Source: an uncultured virus (IMG/VR IMGVR_UViG_3300028805_000097) (Duplodnaviria; Heunggongvirae; Uroviricota; Caudoviricetes). From it: a stretch of 20,000 nt of DNA. Shown here one piece after another: positions 1-13,450 of the stretch. Every line of letters starts with the position of its first letter. Positions within the stretch are counted from its first letter, which is position 1. The stretch is from positions 56,970 to 76,969 of the IMG/VR virus record IMGVR_UViG_3300028805_000097; one strand, given 5' to 3'. The notes beneath the pieces are model-generated. The model searched no databases and was not told the origin of the DNA. It worked only from the letters and a program-made list of their open reading frames with translations. The position numbers were made by a program, and so were the translations under genes.

Positions 1-10
1 TTTGTCTCAT
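1..10 (-). CDS. 5' end of a gene running off the window (MRQ...)
   Basis: ATG at 10-8 after an A-rich leader and the promoter at 64-96. Confidence 0.5.
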
Positions 11-63
11 AATAATGTTGTATTAAAAGTTACTACCTTTGCGGAGTGCATCGGTTTTCGCTG

Positions 64-96: not shown

Positions 97-304
97 GATT
101 TTAACGTTTTTTATGAAAAAAGTGTGTTTGTAAAAAAATCGGAAAGCTACGGCTGGGATATACTATATAGGCAGATAGATTGTAAATAAAAAATCATGTG
201 CAGGTTAAAAGTGGCTTGTGCTGGCTTGTTTTAGTGCTGGGGGTATAGTTATAGGGTATGCTGGGTAAAACGTCCTTAGAAGGGCAGGAAATAGGCTTAA
301 ACGT

Positions 305-335
305 AAAAAGACCCACCTTATTAGGGTAGGTCTTT
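305..335 (-). terminator. intrinsic terminator after the helicase
   Basis: AAAGACCTACC-loop-GGTGGGTCTTT followed by T run. Confidence 0.8.
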
Positions 336-354
336 CGTGCTGGGATGCTGGGTG

Positions 355-1929: not shown

Positions 1930-2333
1930 GAATTTATGAAAAATTAAGATTTGTTTCAAATCGTTTACATTTGGCTTGCTGGATGGATGCTGGCTGGGTT
2001 TTCCGATTTCTTTACAACTGCCAGCATATACTATATAGGGCATGAAAAGTTTTTACAAACCGCAGGCTGGCAGGATGCAGGCTGGGTGTGCTGGTGTACT
2101 ACCCAGCTGGTACACTGGTTCGCCTATATATAGATTAATATATATTATAGCGTGTGGGTGCGTAGCTGAGGTTATGCTGGCGACACATTATCCAGCACGT
2201 CACGATACCTTGTGCTGACTCTCGTGTGCTCGTGTTGCCAGCACACTTACCTGCCTTCGTGCTCGTGTTGTGTAGGGAGGCACGCCTGGGCTGCTCCTGG
2301 AGGGTGCACCACCCGCATACACATTACGTATTA

Positions 2334-2349
2334 TGTTTCACGTGAAACA
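2334..2349. promoter_or_regulatory. parS: parS centromere-like site
   Basis: Perfect palindrome TGTTTCACGTGAAACA matching the chromosomal ParB/Spo0J consensus. Confidence 0.85.
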
Positions 2350-2382
2350 CGTGAGACAATTGAGACACGTACACACATAAAG

Positions 2383-2416
2383 AAAAATCCTGCTTATCTT
2401 CTCAGACCAGCAGGAT
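2383..2416 (-). terminator. intrinsic terminator, GAGA tetraloop
   Basis: ATCCTGCT-G-GTCT-GAGA-AGAT-A-AGCAGGAT-TTTT. Confidence 0.8.
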
Positions 2417-2530
2417 AAAACCTAAAACCATGAAAAACATGAATAACTAAAAACCTTTTGAATATTATTATGAGCAAATCGAGTTGTATCTTCCTATATA
2501 TGTTGTAATGTACTTTTTTAAGTCCTTTAT

Positions 2531-2563
2531 AAAAACTTATCTATCTTCGCAGACTGATAAGTT
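2531..2563 (-). terminator. intrinsic terminator, GCGA tetraloop
   Basis: AACTTATC-A-GTCT-GCGA-AGAT-A-GATAAGTT-TTT. Confidence 0.75.
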
Positions 2564-2635
2564 ATTGATTAACTAATCCAAAACAAAATATAATGTGTTA
2601 TGCCTATGTACCTTTATGTACTTTTTTAAGTCGGT

Positions 2636-2668
2636 GCAAAGTTACACATTTTCCATGTAATAACCAAA
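2636..2668 (-). promoter_or_regulatory. Bacteroidota sigma-A promoter (no ORF downstream)
   Basis: TTTG-N20-TAACTTTGC; 37 nt identical to 10166-10202. Confidence 0.85.
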
Positions 2669-3198: not shown

Positions 3199-3549
3199 TT
3201 AATTATTTTCAATAAAAAATACATCCGTGTAATTACCTCCCATAAACTTCGGGGTTAACTTCTGTCTGCCCTTAAAGTCCTCCATTGCTTCTGTCCTATC
3301 GTTGAAATAGGTAATGTTCTGATAACCTACCAAGCCATTGTTATAGCGGATGGATGCAGGGACACCAAATCTATTCTCATATTTTTCCCCACAATCCACT
3401 TTAACCTCTGTGTAGGCTACTGCATACTTGCAAGCATTAAAAGAGCCACTAAAGACCTTTTTCTTGTCCTCTCCGATAACGTAATAGTTGTTATCAACAC
3501 TGAAAGAAATTCGCTTGCCCTCTGTTGTAAATGATTGCCTTGCTCTCAT
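3199..3549 (-). CDS. hypothetical protein (116 aa)
   Basis: ORF with A-rich leader inside the operon. Confidence 0.8.
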   Translation of the reverse strand: MRARQSFTTEGKRISFSVDNNYYVIGEDKKKVFSGSFNACKYAVAYTEVKVDCGEKYENRFGVPASIRYNNGLVGYQNITYFNDRTEAMEDFKGRQKLTPKFMGGNYTDVFFIENN

Positions 3550-3563
3550 AACCTTATATGTTT

Positions 3564-3665
3564 TTAATCGTTCTTACCACAAGCAATCCAGCCAATCGGT
3601 TTACCATCGTAGGCGTAGCCTATTGCCTTGTGCTTGATTCCGTTAATATACTTATACTTCTTCAT
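3564..3665 (-). CDS. small hypothetical protein (33 aa, MKKYKYINGIKHKAIGYAYDGKPIGWIACGKND)
   Basis: Not in ORF track; ATGA overlap with the upstream stop and fills the gap. Confidence 0.65.
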   Translation of the reverse strand: MKKYKYINGIKHKAIGYAYDGKPIGWIACGKND

Positions 3666-3967
3666 GACCTTATATCAATATTGTTAAACAATTTAGATGA
3701 ATCCCACATATTTCTGTTCTCGTCCTCGCACCACTTGTCGTATTGGTCGCAGGATAATCTTTCTTCAAGTTCCACCTTGAACACGCATACCTTTTCGCAC
3801 ACGTATTGGTAGAGTAACCTATTCGCTTTCTTTCTTGCGCTCTCGAAGTATTGGTAGCACTTCGGATAACGTCTAAAGAACCATGCTAAGACGTTACCTT
3901 CTTGCAGGGTGCATCCAACACCATCAATGAACACCACTACGATGTATCTAACCTTGCTCTTATCCAT
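3662..3967 (-). CDS. hypothetical protein (101 aa)
   Basis: First ORF after promoter 3993-4025. Confidence 0.8.
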   Translation of the reverse strand: MDKSKVRYIVVVFIDGVGCTLQEGNVLAWFFRRYPKCYQYFESARKKANRLLYQYVCEKVCVFKVELEERLSCDQYDKWCEDENRNMWDSSKLFNNIDIRS

Positions 3968-3992
3968 AACTCATGTTTGTTAAATTGATAGT

Positions 3993-4025
3993 GCAAAGTT
4001 ACACATTATCCAGCATATATCCAAA
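3993..4025 (-). promoter_or_regulatory. Bacteroidota sigma-A promoter
   Basis: TTTG...TAACTTTGC. Confidence 0.85.
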
Positions 4026-4044
4026 TTATTTAATATTATTTAAT

Positions 4045-4080
4045 AAAAATGACTGACCCTATTCGCATAGAGCCAGCCAC
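4045..4080 (-). terminator. intrinsic terminator, GCGA tetraloop
   Basis: 14-bp stem GTGGCTGGCTCTAT/ATAGGGTCAGTCAT with GU pairs, then T run. Confidence 0.8.
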
Positions 4081-4099
4081 CAAATATGAAAAACGAAAA

Positions 4100-4789
4100 T
4101 CACATTCCTTCCCTAAACACCTTCTTGTATATGGTAATAAGTTCCTCTTCGGTCTTGCCTTCCAAGTCATTGACGTGCTCCTTAGCATAGTTTTCAATAG
4201 CTTCCTTGCCATTGCAGTATTGTTTGTATCTCGGTGTCGTAGTGGCATAAGAGAAAGGCAGGTTACTAAGCCTTAACTCCTTATAGAAATAGTCACACAC
4301 TGGGTTTACTACCTTGTAGTTCAGTAACTTTGCTATACGTTGTGCCTGCTCCCTATCTGCTTTCTCAATGTAGGTGTAATACACATACTCTGCAAGGATG
4401 CAGCGAATAACGTCTGCCACCTCGTCAGCATCATATCTAAAGCTACCCAACCTGCAAGAACCACGATACCCATTGCAGGAATTAAATTCAGTATAGCTGA
4501 CACTTGTAGATGTATCAGTTTTGTCACCCTGCACATAGAACATCAGCATTGGTCTATTACCATAGATATACAAGTGCTCGATGGTGCTATCCCAATTGTT
4601 TCCTGCCCTGCGGTCAGAATCAATCCAAAAATCACCATCATCATTCTTGCACTCACTAATGATGCGAAGGATAGTTGCAGGTGTGGTTTTACGAATCTCC
4701 TGCGGTGATGCAGTCTTGATGTAGTGTAAGATGTTCTCGGCAGGTGTGTTGCTGAAAACCATTTTGTTAATGTCGATAAACTTTTCCAT
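4100..4789 (-). CDS. hypothetical protein (229 aa, MEKFID...)
   Basis: Start moved downstream of promoter 4818-4850; followed by a terminator. Confidence 0.85.
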   Translation of the reverse strand: MEKFIDINKMVFSNTPAENILHYIKTASPQEIRKTTPATILRIISECKNDDGDFWIDSDRRAGNNWDSTIEHLYIYGNRPMLMFYVQGDKTDTSTSVSYTEFNSCNGYRGSCRLGSFRYDADEVADVIRCILAEYVYYTYIEKADREQAQRIAKLLNYKVVNPVCDYFYKELRLSNLPFSYATTTPRYKQYCNGKEAIENYAKEHVNDLEGKTEEELITIYKKVFREGM

Positions 4790-4817
4790 AATGTTGTTAT
4801 TTAATTGGTTTGATGCT

Positions 4818-4850
4818 GCAAAGTTACAAAAAAAGATTGGAATAACCACG
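4818..4850 (-). promoter_or_regulatory. Bacteroidota sigma-A promoter
   Basis: TAACTTTGC with degenerate -33. Confidence 0.8.
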
Positions 4851-4929
4851 TATTACTCCAATCTTTTATAGTTTATTAACAATCAGTGAGGTCTTATCTT
4901 GCTGATACTATGGCGTTGCAAGTTCTTAT
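4818..4929. repeat. direct repeat, copy 1 (112 bp)
   Basis: 105/112 identical to 6278-6389. Confidence 0.95.
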
Positions 4930-5049: not shown

Positions 5050-5550
5050 TTAGCGCACGACAATCACCTTCTCGATAATCTTAATGTCCTCATAGTAGTC
5101 ATCGCTGGGGTCGTTGATATACCAGCGGTCATCGTCCTCTTCAATCTCGAACTCTTCTTCCAACTCTTCTGGAGTGTAGTGGTCGTAGTGAGGGGAATCT
5201 TGCAGGATAGTGTTCTTTTCGTTCTGTAATACCTTTCTTGCAGCCTCCAGAGTAGCGCATGGTACAGCGTTGATAATAATCTCTCCGTCCACGTTACTCT
5301 CTTGTAAGACGATGTACGTTTTCTGAAGGCAATATGGATGACTTATAACATAGCTGCCCAGCAACAACCTTGCAACCTGTTCCCTGTCAGCTAATGGTAT
5401 AATCGTGTAGTAATCACGTAACCAATCCATCAAATCTCCGTAAATGGTCTGGCGTTCACTATCACTCTCCAGACTGCTCTTGTCAAGAAGTTTTTCAACC
5501 AAGTTTGGGTACTTGGTCATAATCTCTTGGTAAATCTCTGATACTCCCAT
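5050..5550 (-). CDS. hypothetical protein with acidic C-terminus (166 aa)
   Basis: ORF with A-rich leader. Confidence 0.85.
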   Translation of the reverse strand: MGVSEIYQEIMTKYPNLVEKLLDKSSLESDSERQTIYGDLMDWLRDYYTIIPLADREQVARLLLGSYVISHPYCLQKTYIVLQESNVDGEIIINAVPCATLEAARKVLQNEKNTILQDSPHYDHYTPEELEEEFEIEEDDDRWYINDPSDDYYEDIKIIEKVIVVR

Positions 5551-5603
5551 AATGATTGCGTATTAAATAACCTACTTGTACTGATTTAAGTACATTTATT
5601 TGT

Positions 5604-5852
5604 TTAGTTGTTAATAATGTTTACAATCTGATAGCCGTAACACCACTTATGATTATCAAGGCTGAAAGTGTATTCAACACCATGCCCGAAATCTCCAGCC
5701 CTATCATCGAAGTTTACTTCGTCGATGGGTTCACCATACTTTTCGCCACACTCGCATTCCTCAATGGCTACAACCACTGCTACATTGGTTTCTTTATCGT
5801 TGGGTAAGCGATATTCAACCTTCGTACCTTTTTTAATGACTTGTTTCTCCAT
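5604..5852 (-). CDS. hypothetical protein (82 aa, MEKQVIKKG...)
   Basis: Start moved downstream of promoter 5875-5907. Confidence 0.8.
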   Translation of the reverse strand: MEKQVIKKGTKVEYRLPNDKETNVAVVVAIEECECGEKYGEPIDEVNFDDRAGDFGHGVEYTFSLDNHKWCYGYQIVNIINN

Positions 5853-5874
5853 AACTAATAATTGTTTAGACGCT

Positions 5875-5907
5875 GCAAAGTTACACAAAAACCATGAAAT
5901 AGCCAAA
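5875..5907 (-). promoter_or_regulatory. Bacteroidota sigma-A promoter
   Basis: TTTG...TAACTTTGC. Confidence 0.85.
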
Positions 5908-5918
5908 TAATTAGTGTT

Positions 5919-5957
5919 AAAAAAAATTAAGGGTGCTGACCGAATTGTCAACACCCT
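5919..5957 (-). terminator. intrinsic terminator
   Basis: AGGGTGTTGAC/GTCAGCACCCT then TAATTTTTTTT. Confidence 0.75.
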
Positions 5958-7642: not shown

Positions 7643-7683
7643 ACCTGTGTTCTTTTTATAGCTCTCTTGTACTTATTCAAGTC

Positions 7684-7956
7684 CTAACCAATCAAGGGCA
7701 TTACAGGCACGTCTTCAATGCCAAACTGGTATCTACCCATCTGACACTCCAGCTCGGCAACCTCATTGTGAGCCAGCTCCCATGCAACAGAGCCACACAC
7801 ACCCTTTCTGCCAAAGCCGCATACCTCTAACTCGTCTCTAATCTTTTCAACCACCTTGCTGTCTCGCAAATCCTGTGAGCTATCCACCACCAGAAATGCT
7901 GACTTGTGGCTATCATCCATGTCCACATAATAAAGGACTCTTGCTGTCTTACTCAT
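7684..7956 (-). CDS. hypothetical protein (90 aa)
   Basis: First ORF after promoter 7987-8019. Confidence 0.8.
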   Translation of the reverse strand: MSKTARVLYYVDMDDSHKSAFLVVDSSQDLRDSKVVEKIRDELEVCGFGRKGVCGSVAWELAHNEVAELECQMGRYQFGIEDVPVMPLIG

Positions 7957-8034: not shown

Positions 8035-8700
8035 TTACCATTCTTTAACAAATTTCACATTTACTGACGTGTCCTTAACGCCTACCTTGCGCAAATAGTC
8101 CTCCAGTACTTTTTTAAGTCCATCTACAAGACCTTCTGGGTTATCAATACGTTTGTGCATCGTAGATGTATAGACTTCAAACTTCTCTCGGAATTGATAG
8201 GTTCTGGCTATGTAATCTTCCAGTGCCTCATAGTGTTCATCTGCAAGTTCCCCTGCCTCGTAGTGGAAGTTTGCATCATCAAGCCTATCTTCCAACAGGA
8301 TTTTCATACGTTTGTCAGCCTTCTTATGCTCCTTTAGAATCTGCATAAGTGACTTGTAACCATACGCCCACTTGCATTTGTGGTTAGGTTTGTACACATA
8401 CTTTTCTCGCTCGGCTTCGGTGAAATAAATCTCCTTGCCAGAAATCATGTTGTCGATGCACTCCTTTAGCTCGTCCTTTGTCTTTTTCGTCACGCCATAA
8501 GCCTGTGAAGGTCTGGTTTCCTCACCCTCCTTGCAGAACTCGTAATAGACCTCTCTCTTAGTCTCGTACTGCCTGCTCATTTCGTAACGCTTATTGAAGT
8601 TATTCCACCAATGGTGAACTGCCAACACTCTAATGATTGCAAAGCCCTTGTAGCTCTCGGACTTGCTTCTGCTCTTTGTTATTCCATCTAATTTACTCAT
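8035..8700 (-). CDS. hypothetical protein (221 aa)
   Basis: Long ORF with A-rich leader. Confidence 0.85.
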   Translation of the reverse strand: MSKLDGITKSRSKSESYKGFAIIRVLAVHHWWNNFNKRYEMSRQYETKREVYYEFCKEGEETRPSQAYGVTKKTKDELKECIDNMISGKEIYFTEAEREKYVYKPNHKCKWAYGYKSLMQILKEHKKADKRMKILLEDRLDDANFHYEAGELADEHYEALEDYIARTYQFREKFEVYTSTMHKRIDNPEGLVDGLKKVLEDYLRKVGVKDTSVNVKFVKEW

Positions 8701-10143: not shown

Positions 10144-10166
10144 AACTTTATTGTTTTATTGACGCT

Positions 10167-10199
10167 GCAAAGTTACACATTTTCCATGTAATAACCAAA
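10167..10199 (-). promoter_or_regulatory. Bacteroidota sigma-A promoter
   Basis: TTTG...TAACTTTGC. Confidence 0.85.
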
Positions 10200-10223
10200 T
10201 CCTTTAATATTTTTTAAGAAAAT

Positions 10224-13331: not shown

Positions 13332-13360
13332 AGTTCTCTCAATCTTTTAACATTTTTTAG

Positions 13361-13450
13361 TACGTCGGGCGGGGGTCGAACCCGCAAGACGCTTTTGACG
13401 GCATCTGTCAGATTTTAAGTCTGATGTGTACACCATTCCACCACCGACGC
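13361..13450 (-). tRNA. tRNA-Leu (anticodon UAA)
   Basis: Acceptor GCGTCGG/CCGACGT, D-loop GGAATGGT, anticodon arm TCAGA-CT TAA AA-TCTGA, long variable arm, T arm GCGGG-TTCGACC-CCCGC, discriminator A; CCA not encoded. Confidence 0.93.

Follow-up and report, generated by a model that had tools for sequence, protein, structure and literature searches.

What does a phage promoter drive when no gene follows it? The question is raised by a short stretch at positions 2378-2668 of the window, by which we mean the 20,000 nucleotides (nt) that form the last 20 kb of the 76,969-bp virus record IMGVR_UViG_3300028805_000097 (Caudoviricetes). A preliminary description had proposed that this promoter serves only two tandem small RNAs (sRNAs), each with a seed that varies between a 5′ handle and a 3′ hairpin that stay constant. 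On the minus strand, on which all features of the stretch are read, the two units lie upstream of a gene for a UvrD-like superfamily-1 helicase of 502 amino acids (aa; 355-1863). We propose, with a probability of about one half, that the second of them, unit 2, is an antisense sRNA that would repress translation of this helicase. Because unit 2 can pair with the start-codon region of the helicase, the gene is probably timed or throttled by that pairing. The promoter motif, the covariation of the terminators, the lack of a conserved open reading frame (ORF), the complementarity and its tracking across lineages were computed directly; transcription of the units, action in trans, repression and timing are what we infer.

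A promoter, two non-coding bodies and two hairpins

The promoter lies within a 37-nt block, GGATTTGGTTATTACATGGAAAATGTGTAACTTTGCA (2635-2671; 2636-2668 in the preliminary description), that is identical at 37 of 37 positions to the gene promoter block at 10166-10202. It is predicted from its sequence to be of the Bacteroidota type (2637-2668), with the −33 TTTG (2665-2668) and the −7 box TAACTTTG (2637-2644; TAnnTTTG) of sigma-ABfr promoters at their usual spacing. A search with the promoter 33-mer returned two sites, with 0 and 1 mismatch, for a chance expectation of 0, and the pattern TTTGG-N19/20-TAnnTTTG is matched at 23 sites of the 76,969-bp genome, of which the 17 in the window are all on the minus strand. 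Four nt past the −7 box starts a 17-mer, GACTTAAAAAAGTACAT (M1, 2616-2632), followed by the poorly conserved, non-coding body of unit 1 (2564-2615) and a hairpin, T1 (2531-2563). A second exact copy of GACTTAAAAAAGTACAT (M2, 2508-2524) begins 6 nt past the U tract of T1 and heads the non-coding body of unit 2 (2417-2507), which contains a core block 100% conserved in the related loci L002 and L021 and is followed by a second hairpin, T2 (2378-2416). Two further copies of the 17-mer carry 2-3 mismatches (0.17 by chance), and four matches were reached in none of 200 shuffles.

Both bodies are A/U-rich and contain CAU triplets. The absence of an ORF behind the promoter was confirmed: the transcribed strand of the two-unit stretch holds none of at least 40 aa, and ORFs of 20-30 aa on this strand are not conserved in L002. 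A small protein was considered and rejected, since a 12-aa ATG ORF (seen by eye) and a 27-aa TTG ORF in unit 2 are disrupted or frame-shifted in that relative. Because the promoter, the 17-mers, the hairpins and the lack of an ORF were all found again, the preliminary description of the locus is correct apart from offsets of 1-3 bases (it had placed M1 at 2617-2633), and the same anatomy of promoter, non-coding bodies and two intrinsic terminators is kept in relatives. We take the stretch to be two tandem non-coding transcription units, each bounded by a terminator.

T1 (hairpin at 2534-2563) reads AACTTATC-A-GTCT-GCGA-AGAT-A-GATAAGTT and then T5, and folds into an 8-bp stem, a 1x1 loop and a 4-bp stem with a GCGA loop, followed by a U tract, at a predicted −10.5 kcal/mol. 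T2 (hairpin at 2387-2416) reads ATCCTGCT-G-GTCT-GAGA-AGAT-A-AGCAGGAT and then T5, with a GAGA loop, a U tract and a predicted −16.4 kcal/mol. These are the homologous GTCT-GNRA-AGAT hairpins with differing, paired outer stems that had been described earlier. Relatives were found by searching IMG/VR and JGI metagenomes with the helicase, which gave nine close loci with helicase identities of 66-78% (L021, L023, L024, L026, L027, L028, L029, L030 and L034) and four more distant or fragmentary ones (L025, L032, L033 and L037); counts out of 10 loci refer to this phage and the nine close loci. Thirteen hairpins from the 10 loci could be aligned without gaps in a single register and share an 8-bp outer stem, a 1x1 internal loop, a 4-bp inner stem and a GNGA loop, with standard pairs in 98.7% of cells and changes on both sides in 11 of the 12 pairs. 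The observed covariation values were reached by none of 500 shuffles, and pairing was 34-41% when the partners were slid. As stable hairpins that combine compensatory change with U tracts, T1 and T2 are genuine intrinsic terminators. Their predicted energies in the three loci with two units are −10.5/−16.4, −9.7/−15.6 and −14.8/−20.6 kcal/mol, T1 always being the weaker, so that a short RNA and a read-through RNA would both be allowed. What is constant in the supposed constant 3′ hairpin is its architecture and not its sequence, since the inner stem differs between lineages: GTCT/AGAT is found within group A only (see below), AGTT-GTGA-AACT in most other lineages, and TGTT/AACA and AATC/GATT in L029.

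The 17-mer is one form of a motif, M, that is present in all 10 loci, 620-810 nt upstream of the helicase ATG and usually as two copies 77-117 nt apart with a terminator between them, and that was found upstream of the helicase in none of the four distant loci. In group A (the window, L021 and L030) the order is promoter, M1, body, terminator, M2, body, terminator, with M1 lying 32 nt behind the promoter in L030 as against 4 nt in the window. Group B (L023, L024, L028 and L034) begins at the stop codon of a different upstream gene and continues with a perfect-palindrome M1, body, terminator, M2 and a C/A-rich stretch, for which a scan found no second terminator. Group C (L029) consists of terminator, M1, body, terminator and M2, and group D (L026 and L027) of stop codon, M1, body, terminator and a variant M2. 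Since only group A has both terminators, the two-unit array is specific to that group. As an array, the suggested design is not shared across the clade, being present in three of 10 loci, all in one of four lineages. Nor does the supposed handle generally sit directly behind a promoter: the first M follows a stop codon in six of 10 loci (groups B and D) and a terminator in L029.

Beyond these loci, a nucleotide search with 2300-2760 against 50,697 phage records gave no match, alignment A2 used as a query for relatives returned only two loci already known, and a scan of genome contigs found no bacterial or prophage relative. The exact 17-mer occurs in 18 stretches of IMG/VR. Six of these were inspected (including L006, L011, L012, possibly L016, and L020), and a common context was found only in L006, L011, L012 and L020, which belong to the helicase clade; the remaining exact copies, in unrelated coding or other sequence, look like chance.

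Complementarity of unit 2 to the helicase start

Unit 2 contains an anti-helicase segment (2465-2485, minus strand) within which TTTGCTCATAATAA (2465-2478) is complementary at every base to TTATTATGAGCAAA, which spans −5 to +9 of the helicase start. The target region spans 1848-1868 on the same strand, with the ATG at 1861-1863 and the 14-nt perfect match at 1855-1868; the wider complementary arm measures 21 nt at 86%. Among 500 shuffled start regions the longest Watson-Crick run averaged 7.7 nt with a maximum of 12, and none of the 500 reached 14. The 14-nt run is also the longest among the 109 predicted-gene start regions of the genome, with runners-up of 11 nt at the start of a sigma-factor gene and one other gene. 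A generic repeat finder placed the pair formed by unit 2 and the helicase start first among the inverted repeats of the region (21 nt, 86%), and the corresponding pair in L024 likewise comes first there (26 nt, 77%). The anti-helicase segment is unpaired in the predicted centroid fold, and a 22-nt block around it is identical in L002 despite a regional identity of 76% (70-71% for the helicase). For unit 2, complementarity to a start region thus exceeds chance, and the earlier proposal of variable bodies that carry an anti-start-codon segment holds for this unit.

The unit bodies of other lineages are unrelated in sequence to those of this phage. The best local antisense alignment to a locus's own helicase start region falls within a unit body at all 10 loci and overlaps the start codon at nine, covering −11 to +14 in group A, −20/−24 to +6 in group B and about −3 to +20 in groups C and D; the alignment in L029 covers +5 to +20, without start-codon overlap. 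Since whole-unit duplexfold rankings are dominated by long-range loops, hybrid energies were computed in 24-nt windows, with 108 real start regions as decoys. The decoys that equalled or bettered the own helicase numbered 1, 4, 15, 10, 2, 2, 1, 1, 1 and 0 of 108 at the 10 loci, and for unit 2 of this phage one of 108 matches the helicase by energy. When each unit region is scored against each helicase start, the resulting cross matrix is block-diagonal for groups A, B and D: group A RNAs reach −15.5 to −19.1 with group A starts and −8.2 to −13.4 with others, and group B RNAs −17.5 to −21.8 with their own starts and −7.6 to −13.6 with others. This indicates that the non-coding body and the helicase start region change together; pairing is kept as the sequences of the relatives change in groups A, B and D, and weakly so in L029 and L030.

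Such an RNA would work as follows. Transcription would start at the host-sigma-type promoter (Bacteroidota −33/−7), and that of unit 2 perhaps also at M2, giving predicted transcripts of about 105 nt for unit 1 and about 145 nt for unit 2, and a T1 read-through product of about 255 nt. The conserved single-stranded segment UUUGCUCAUAAUAA of unit 2 would then pair with positions −5 to +9 of the helicase messenger RNA (mRNA) and block access of the ribosome, so that replication and middle functions would be held back while the early promoter is active. In related phages an equivalent unit of other sequence would be antisense to that phage's own helicase start region. The sigma-factor gene beside the helicase is possibly an additional target of unit 2, which would pair less well with its start region: 11 nt of ATTATTATGAG (6-16, minus strand; ATG at 8-10) are complementary to the same segment. 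This gene encodes 240 aa (genome positions 56257-56979, its 5′ end being positions 1-10 of the window; phrog_351, E 1.9e-39) and adjoins the first helicase gene on the downstream side. A homologue occupies the same position only in L030, one of five loci examined, and the start region of that homologue has no clear match to the L030 unit.

Several observations weigh against a role of unit 2 as a repressor of the helicase. L030 (15 of 108) and L029 (10 of 108) are weak in the decoy test, and pairing of L029 with its own start is no better than with group B and D starts. Whole-unit duplexfold ranks the helicase 20th of 109 for unit 2 and 45th of 109 for unit 1, between 1 and 36 of 108 decoys tie with or beat the helicase in a local alignment that permits G-U pairs, and one other gene start outscores the helicase against the unit 2 body (−19.9 versus −19.1). 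The sequences are A/U-rich and the outcome therefore depends on the scoring scheme. On the contig of L021 itself, with the terminators included in the query, the helicase lies outside the top three of 51 start regions. As the lineages are related, the loci amount to only about four independent comparisons, and the helicase gene has a promoter of its own (1898-1929). Two metatranscriptome runs from one sample gave contigs over 2290-2664 and 2503-2738 that bridge T1 (in one run also T2); these RNA-library contigs have depths similar to those of the flanking genes, may derive from DNA and show neither transcript ends nor strand nor level.

Unit 1, finally, has no convincing complementarity to the helicase start or to any other target in this genome. 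Its best matches are to a CATAACAC-type repeat in another non-coding region and, as a 19-nt inverted repeat of 74%, to 2319-2337. The form CATAACAC(A/G)T recurs in non-coding sequence of several lineages, at 2585-2601 of the window, in the unit 1 body, at 1934-1944 and 2025-2035 of L024 and at about 15905-15920 of L040; in group B its place is downstream of M2, and a further setting is the stretch that follows the sigma-factor gene.

Motif M and control at other levels

M is a clade-specific near-palindrome, (G)TACTT-N4-AAGTACA(T/A). The genome has six occurrences of the pattern ACT[TG]-N4-AAGTAC, where 0.46 would be expected, and a looser pattern gives five copies on the coding strand, including M1 and M2; the search for further copies of the 17-mer that had been suggested earlier thus yielded inexact ones. 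Of the other copies, GACTTGAATAAGTACA (7668-7683, minus strand) comes right behind the stop codon that ends ORF 7684-7956, with the following ATG 24 nt away, and TACTTAAATCAGTACA (5577-5592, minus strand) lies between ORF 5604-5954 and ORF 5050-5550, about 27 nt before the ATG of the latter. A further copy, outside the window, is found just past the terminator of the sigma-factor gene. Three related contigs have 7-11 matches each (forward and reverse, with perfect palindromes counting on both strands), as against 0-3 for a reversed control pattern; they are clustered in the early region, with the asymmetric copies on the coding strand. The sites include positions 24-30 nt upstream of protein-coding ATGs, after stop codons and directly after terminators. 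Because M recurs before genes and after terminators and stop codons, we take it to be a recognition element that flags where transcription units of this clade begin, and the idea that the 17-mer is a dedicated sRNA handle has to be given up. M might serve as a promoter or activator box, possibly one read by the phage sigma factor, or might, as RNA, form a hairpin that a phage protein binds or cuts. In many copies the palindrome is perfect, GTACTT-N4-AAGTAC, with a centre that varies; copies of the GACTT form are one base short in the left half, and changes at the innermost position are uncompensated. YTAT lies 6-7 nt downstream in 13 of the 15 copies that precede genes or other units (counted by eye from printed contexts), and the copies in helicase-upstream units mostly lack it.

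Tiny units also exist, in which just 11-17 nt separate M from a terminator. At 3400-4900 of G003 (the contig of L021) and at 76186-77693 of G001, M occurs in clusters of four copies at intervals of 370-560 nt, with two tiny units among them; these clusters contain no convincing ORFs, transfer RNAs (tRNAs) or Rfam matches and may be further M-headed non-coding RNAs. For six other M-headed units of G003, a 31-kb relative, no antisense target stands out, the longest Watson-Crick run being at most 10 and the top energies 2.3-4.1 standard deviations from the mean, measured against partly spurious ORFs. An M-like sequence, GACTTAAAAAAGTACTG (8104-8120, minus strand), lies inside ORF 8035-8700, where it reflects either chance or a mis-delimited ORF. 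A broader version of the proposal, which we hold to be quite unlikely, is a modular RNA system in the early-to-middle switch, in which M, bound or cut by a phage protein, would head interchangeable bodies derived from an inverted duplication of the target start, with a GNRA-loop terminator at the end. This would be a set of guide-like antisense RNAs with constant handle, variable seed and constant 3′ hairpin in a phylum without Hfq, and the M-headed non-coding clusters in relatives would then be further members.

The terminators themselves could instead be what is regulated, with an M hairpin that recruits a phage factor to RNA polymerase, read-through of T1 and T2 into the downstream regulatory region and genes, and short RNAs as mere by-products. 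M does lie 11-100 nt upstream of terminators in many units, its asymmetric copies are all on the coding strand and the RNA-library contigs span both T1 and T2. M can also form a 6-bp stem with a variable 4-nt loop, and its GACTT form, with 5 bp and a bulged A, fits RNA better than a symmetric DNA site. The stem nevertheless lacks compensatory change, the variants ACTG..AAGT and ACTT..CAGT being uncompensated, and many copies are placed just past a terminator or, where no terminator is near, 24-30 nt ahead of an ATG. Given further that the helicase has its own promoter, that Pfam and PHROGs revealed no N-like factor among the 36 proteins of the window, and that antitermination leaves the tracking of the helicase start by the bodies unexplained, we regard this explanation as improbable. 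A less remote alternative, which we still consider unlikely, is control at the level of DNA, in an origin-like region where M, a palindrome TTTCACGTGAAA, a CATAACACAT motif and CCAGC repeats would be protein-binding sites, the inverted repeat a feature of the DNA and the terminators only insulators. The roughly 800-nt non-coding block upstream of the helicase is indeed kept as modules (M in 10 of 10 loci, CACGTGAAACA(T/C) in nine), M conserves sequence and not merely pairing, and its position after terminators and the YTAT downstream of gene- or unit-proximal copies make it resemble promoter or operator boxes; the neighbouring gene encodes a phage sigma factor. CCAGC-rich regions, however, also precede the next two genes, so that an origin would not be unique, and without exception the complementary segment is found within a unit bounded by a terminator and in the orientation that would give an RNA antisense to the mRNA. 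One of the mismatches of the repeat, moreover, becomes a G-U pair at the RNA level in L021, L030 and group B.

A unique replication origin is not supported: the cumulative GC skew tracks gene orientation, and CCAGC-rich regions stand before three consecutive genes. These genes, for the helicase, the sigma factor and the next protein, are each preceded by a 250-600-nt non-coding region rich in CCAGC/GCTGG (window 1930-2380, minus strand; window 100-350; genome 55,600-56,190, L040:15600-16190). The regions have an AT-rich patch and share a promoter-proximal ttttttcataaaaaacgttaaa-TTTGG. In relatives the sequence ahead of the helicase contains 7-17 copies of CCAGC, and the regions may be a repeated regulator-binding array. 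The palindrome TTTCACGTGAAA (2333-2350, minus strand), with the core CACGTGAAACA(T/C), stands 400-566 nt upstream of the helicase ATG in nine of 10 loci and is probably a binding site for a dimeric protein. Beside it, at 2346, one RNA-library contig has a 9-nt insertion that repeats the adjoining CACGTG-type sequence, which indicates strain variation.

Relation to known RNAs and to the biology of the phage

No Rfam 15 family reaches its gathering threshold within 2378-2668, and ARAGORN found no tRNA in the two-unit stretch; the comparison with Rfam covariance models called for earlier thus leaves it below threshold for every family. The best weak hit is to FopS (RF04319), at 2376-2440 on the minus strand, with 23.5 bits against a gathering score of 56 and E-values of 0.2-0.7 on a few hundred bases; L030 gives 20.4 bits and L021 no hit. 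BTnc201 (RF04177) scores 19.3, 27.7 and 18.7 bits against a gathering score of 105, confined to the GUCU-GNGA-AGAU hairpin and the U tract. The stretch belongs to neither FopS nor BTnc201, and a distant relationship to FopS, or mimicry of its seed, remains a lead. The sRNAs FopS and GibS block translation of SusC-like transporters by means of a 5′ seed that acts on susC start regions, the seed R1′ of FopS forming the very 5′ terminus of a transcript of 65-70 nt, and a FopS-like sequence in a Caudovirales phage is also mentioned (PMC11697453).

Like FopS and GibS, the units are short, with a sigma-ABfr-type promoter, an intrinsic terminator and an unstructured U-rich segment with CAU that would pair with start-codon regions, in the setting of an Hfq-less phylum. 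They differ in length (about 105-145 nt as against 65-70), in that the similar stretch is 3′-proximal and not conserved in L021, and in that the best-supported target is a phage gene and not susC. One could still imagine that the 3′ part of unit 2 mimics the FopS/GibS seed and reprogrammes outer-membrane proteins of the host, a function compatible with repression of the helicase by the same RNA. AUGUUUUUCAUGGUUUUAGGUUU does resemble the FopS 5′ consensus GUGUUUUUCAUgGUAUUAGAUUU, and the hit recurs in L030. Both scores are far from the gathering score, however; the CAUGG core is deleted in L021, the similar stretch (2418-2440) lies just before T2, about 85 nt into unit 2 and not at a 5′ end, and the relatives come from ruminant gut samples. 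A host-directed sRNA of this kind thus seems very unlikely to us.

By analogy, the c4 RNA of phages P1 and P7 is mechanistically the closest known case. It reportedly pairs with a ribosome-loading region and is said to be processed from the same operon transcript as its target. As with c4, a small RNA of the phage, encoded ahead of its target and on the same strand as it, would act here on the ribosome-loading region of a downstream phage gene. Whereas c4 is cut from the operon transcript of its target and controls an antirepressor in a temperate phage, the units have their own promoter and terminator, and the target would be a replication helicase with its own promoter about 600 nt downstream. 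The c4 RNA belongs to the immI operon. It is described as a regulator of ant (PMC8201110). It has no sequence or Rfam relationship to the two-unit stretch. CopA, which acts on repA of plasmid R1, and sar of phage P22 are constitutive small RNAs that cover the start region for a replication or regulatory protein and thereby limit its translation, in which they are comparable to what is proposed for unit 2. They come from the opposite strand of their target and are therefore fully complementary, unlike an RNA encoded elsewhere on the same strand with an imperfect match of 14-31 nt. For M, the parallels are lambda nut/boxB, where boxB recruits N, and the T4 MotA box, which are short repeated early-region elements. 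M shares with them a small number of repeats in the early region, on the coding strand and near promoters or terminators, and differs in having no sequence likeness to them and in that no N-like or MotA-like protein was found.

All likely genes of the window are on the minus strand, and the G+C content of the 76,969-bp record is 39%; of the 36 window proteins two match Pfam and three PHROGs, the helicase among them, the remainder having no match. Elsewhere the genome has genes for a portal protein, a large terminase, a Lon-like protease and thymidylate synthase, and one for a second UvrD-like helicase. The sole Rfam match in the window, at 13361-13450, is a tRNA-Leu (anticodon TAA; 13360-13450, minus strand) in the early region. 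A tRNA repair set is suggested by Thg1-like, nucleotidyltransferase, RNA-ligase and phosphoesterase proteins encoded elsewhere in the genome. The sequencing runs that contain the stretch are labelled sheep and bovine gut. By helicase, the closest cultured relatives are the Bacteroides thetaiotaomicron phages SJC03 and DAC19 (41% identity), in which the helicase-upstream spacer is just 126 nt and M has 0-1 copies in 167-179 kb.

According to a recent preprint, a lambda sRNA acts on host replication (10.1101/2024.10.31.621285). In the portions of the literature available, neither an sRNA of a Bacteroides phage nor a phage sRNA directed at the start region of a helicase turned up. Bacteroidota, to our knowledge, have neither Hfq nor ProQ nor classical Shine-Dalgarno sites, and we know of little on RNA regulation in their phages. 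What would be new is a regulator of known type in a poorly studied phage group. If the pairing is non-functional, the region would still be a well-defined terminator pair with a regulatory motif, and of modest interest. If unit 2 does repress the helicase, it would show in a clean and testable way how a lytic-type phage can time its replication by antisense RNA, and M would offer an entry to the transcription programme of a clade of large ruminant-gut phages that encodes its own sigma factor.

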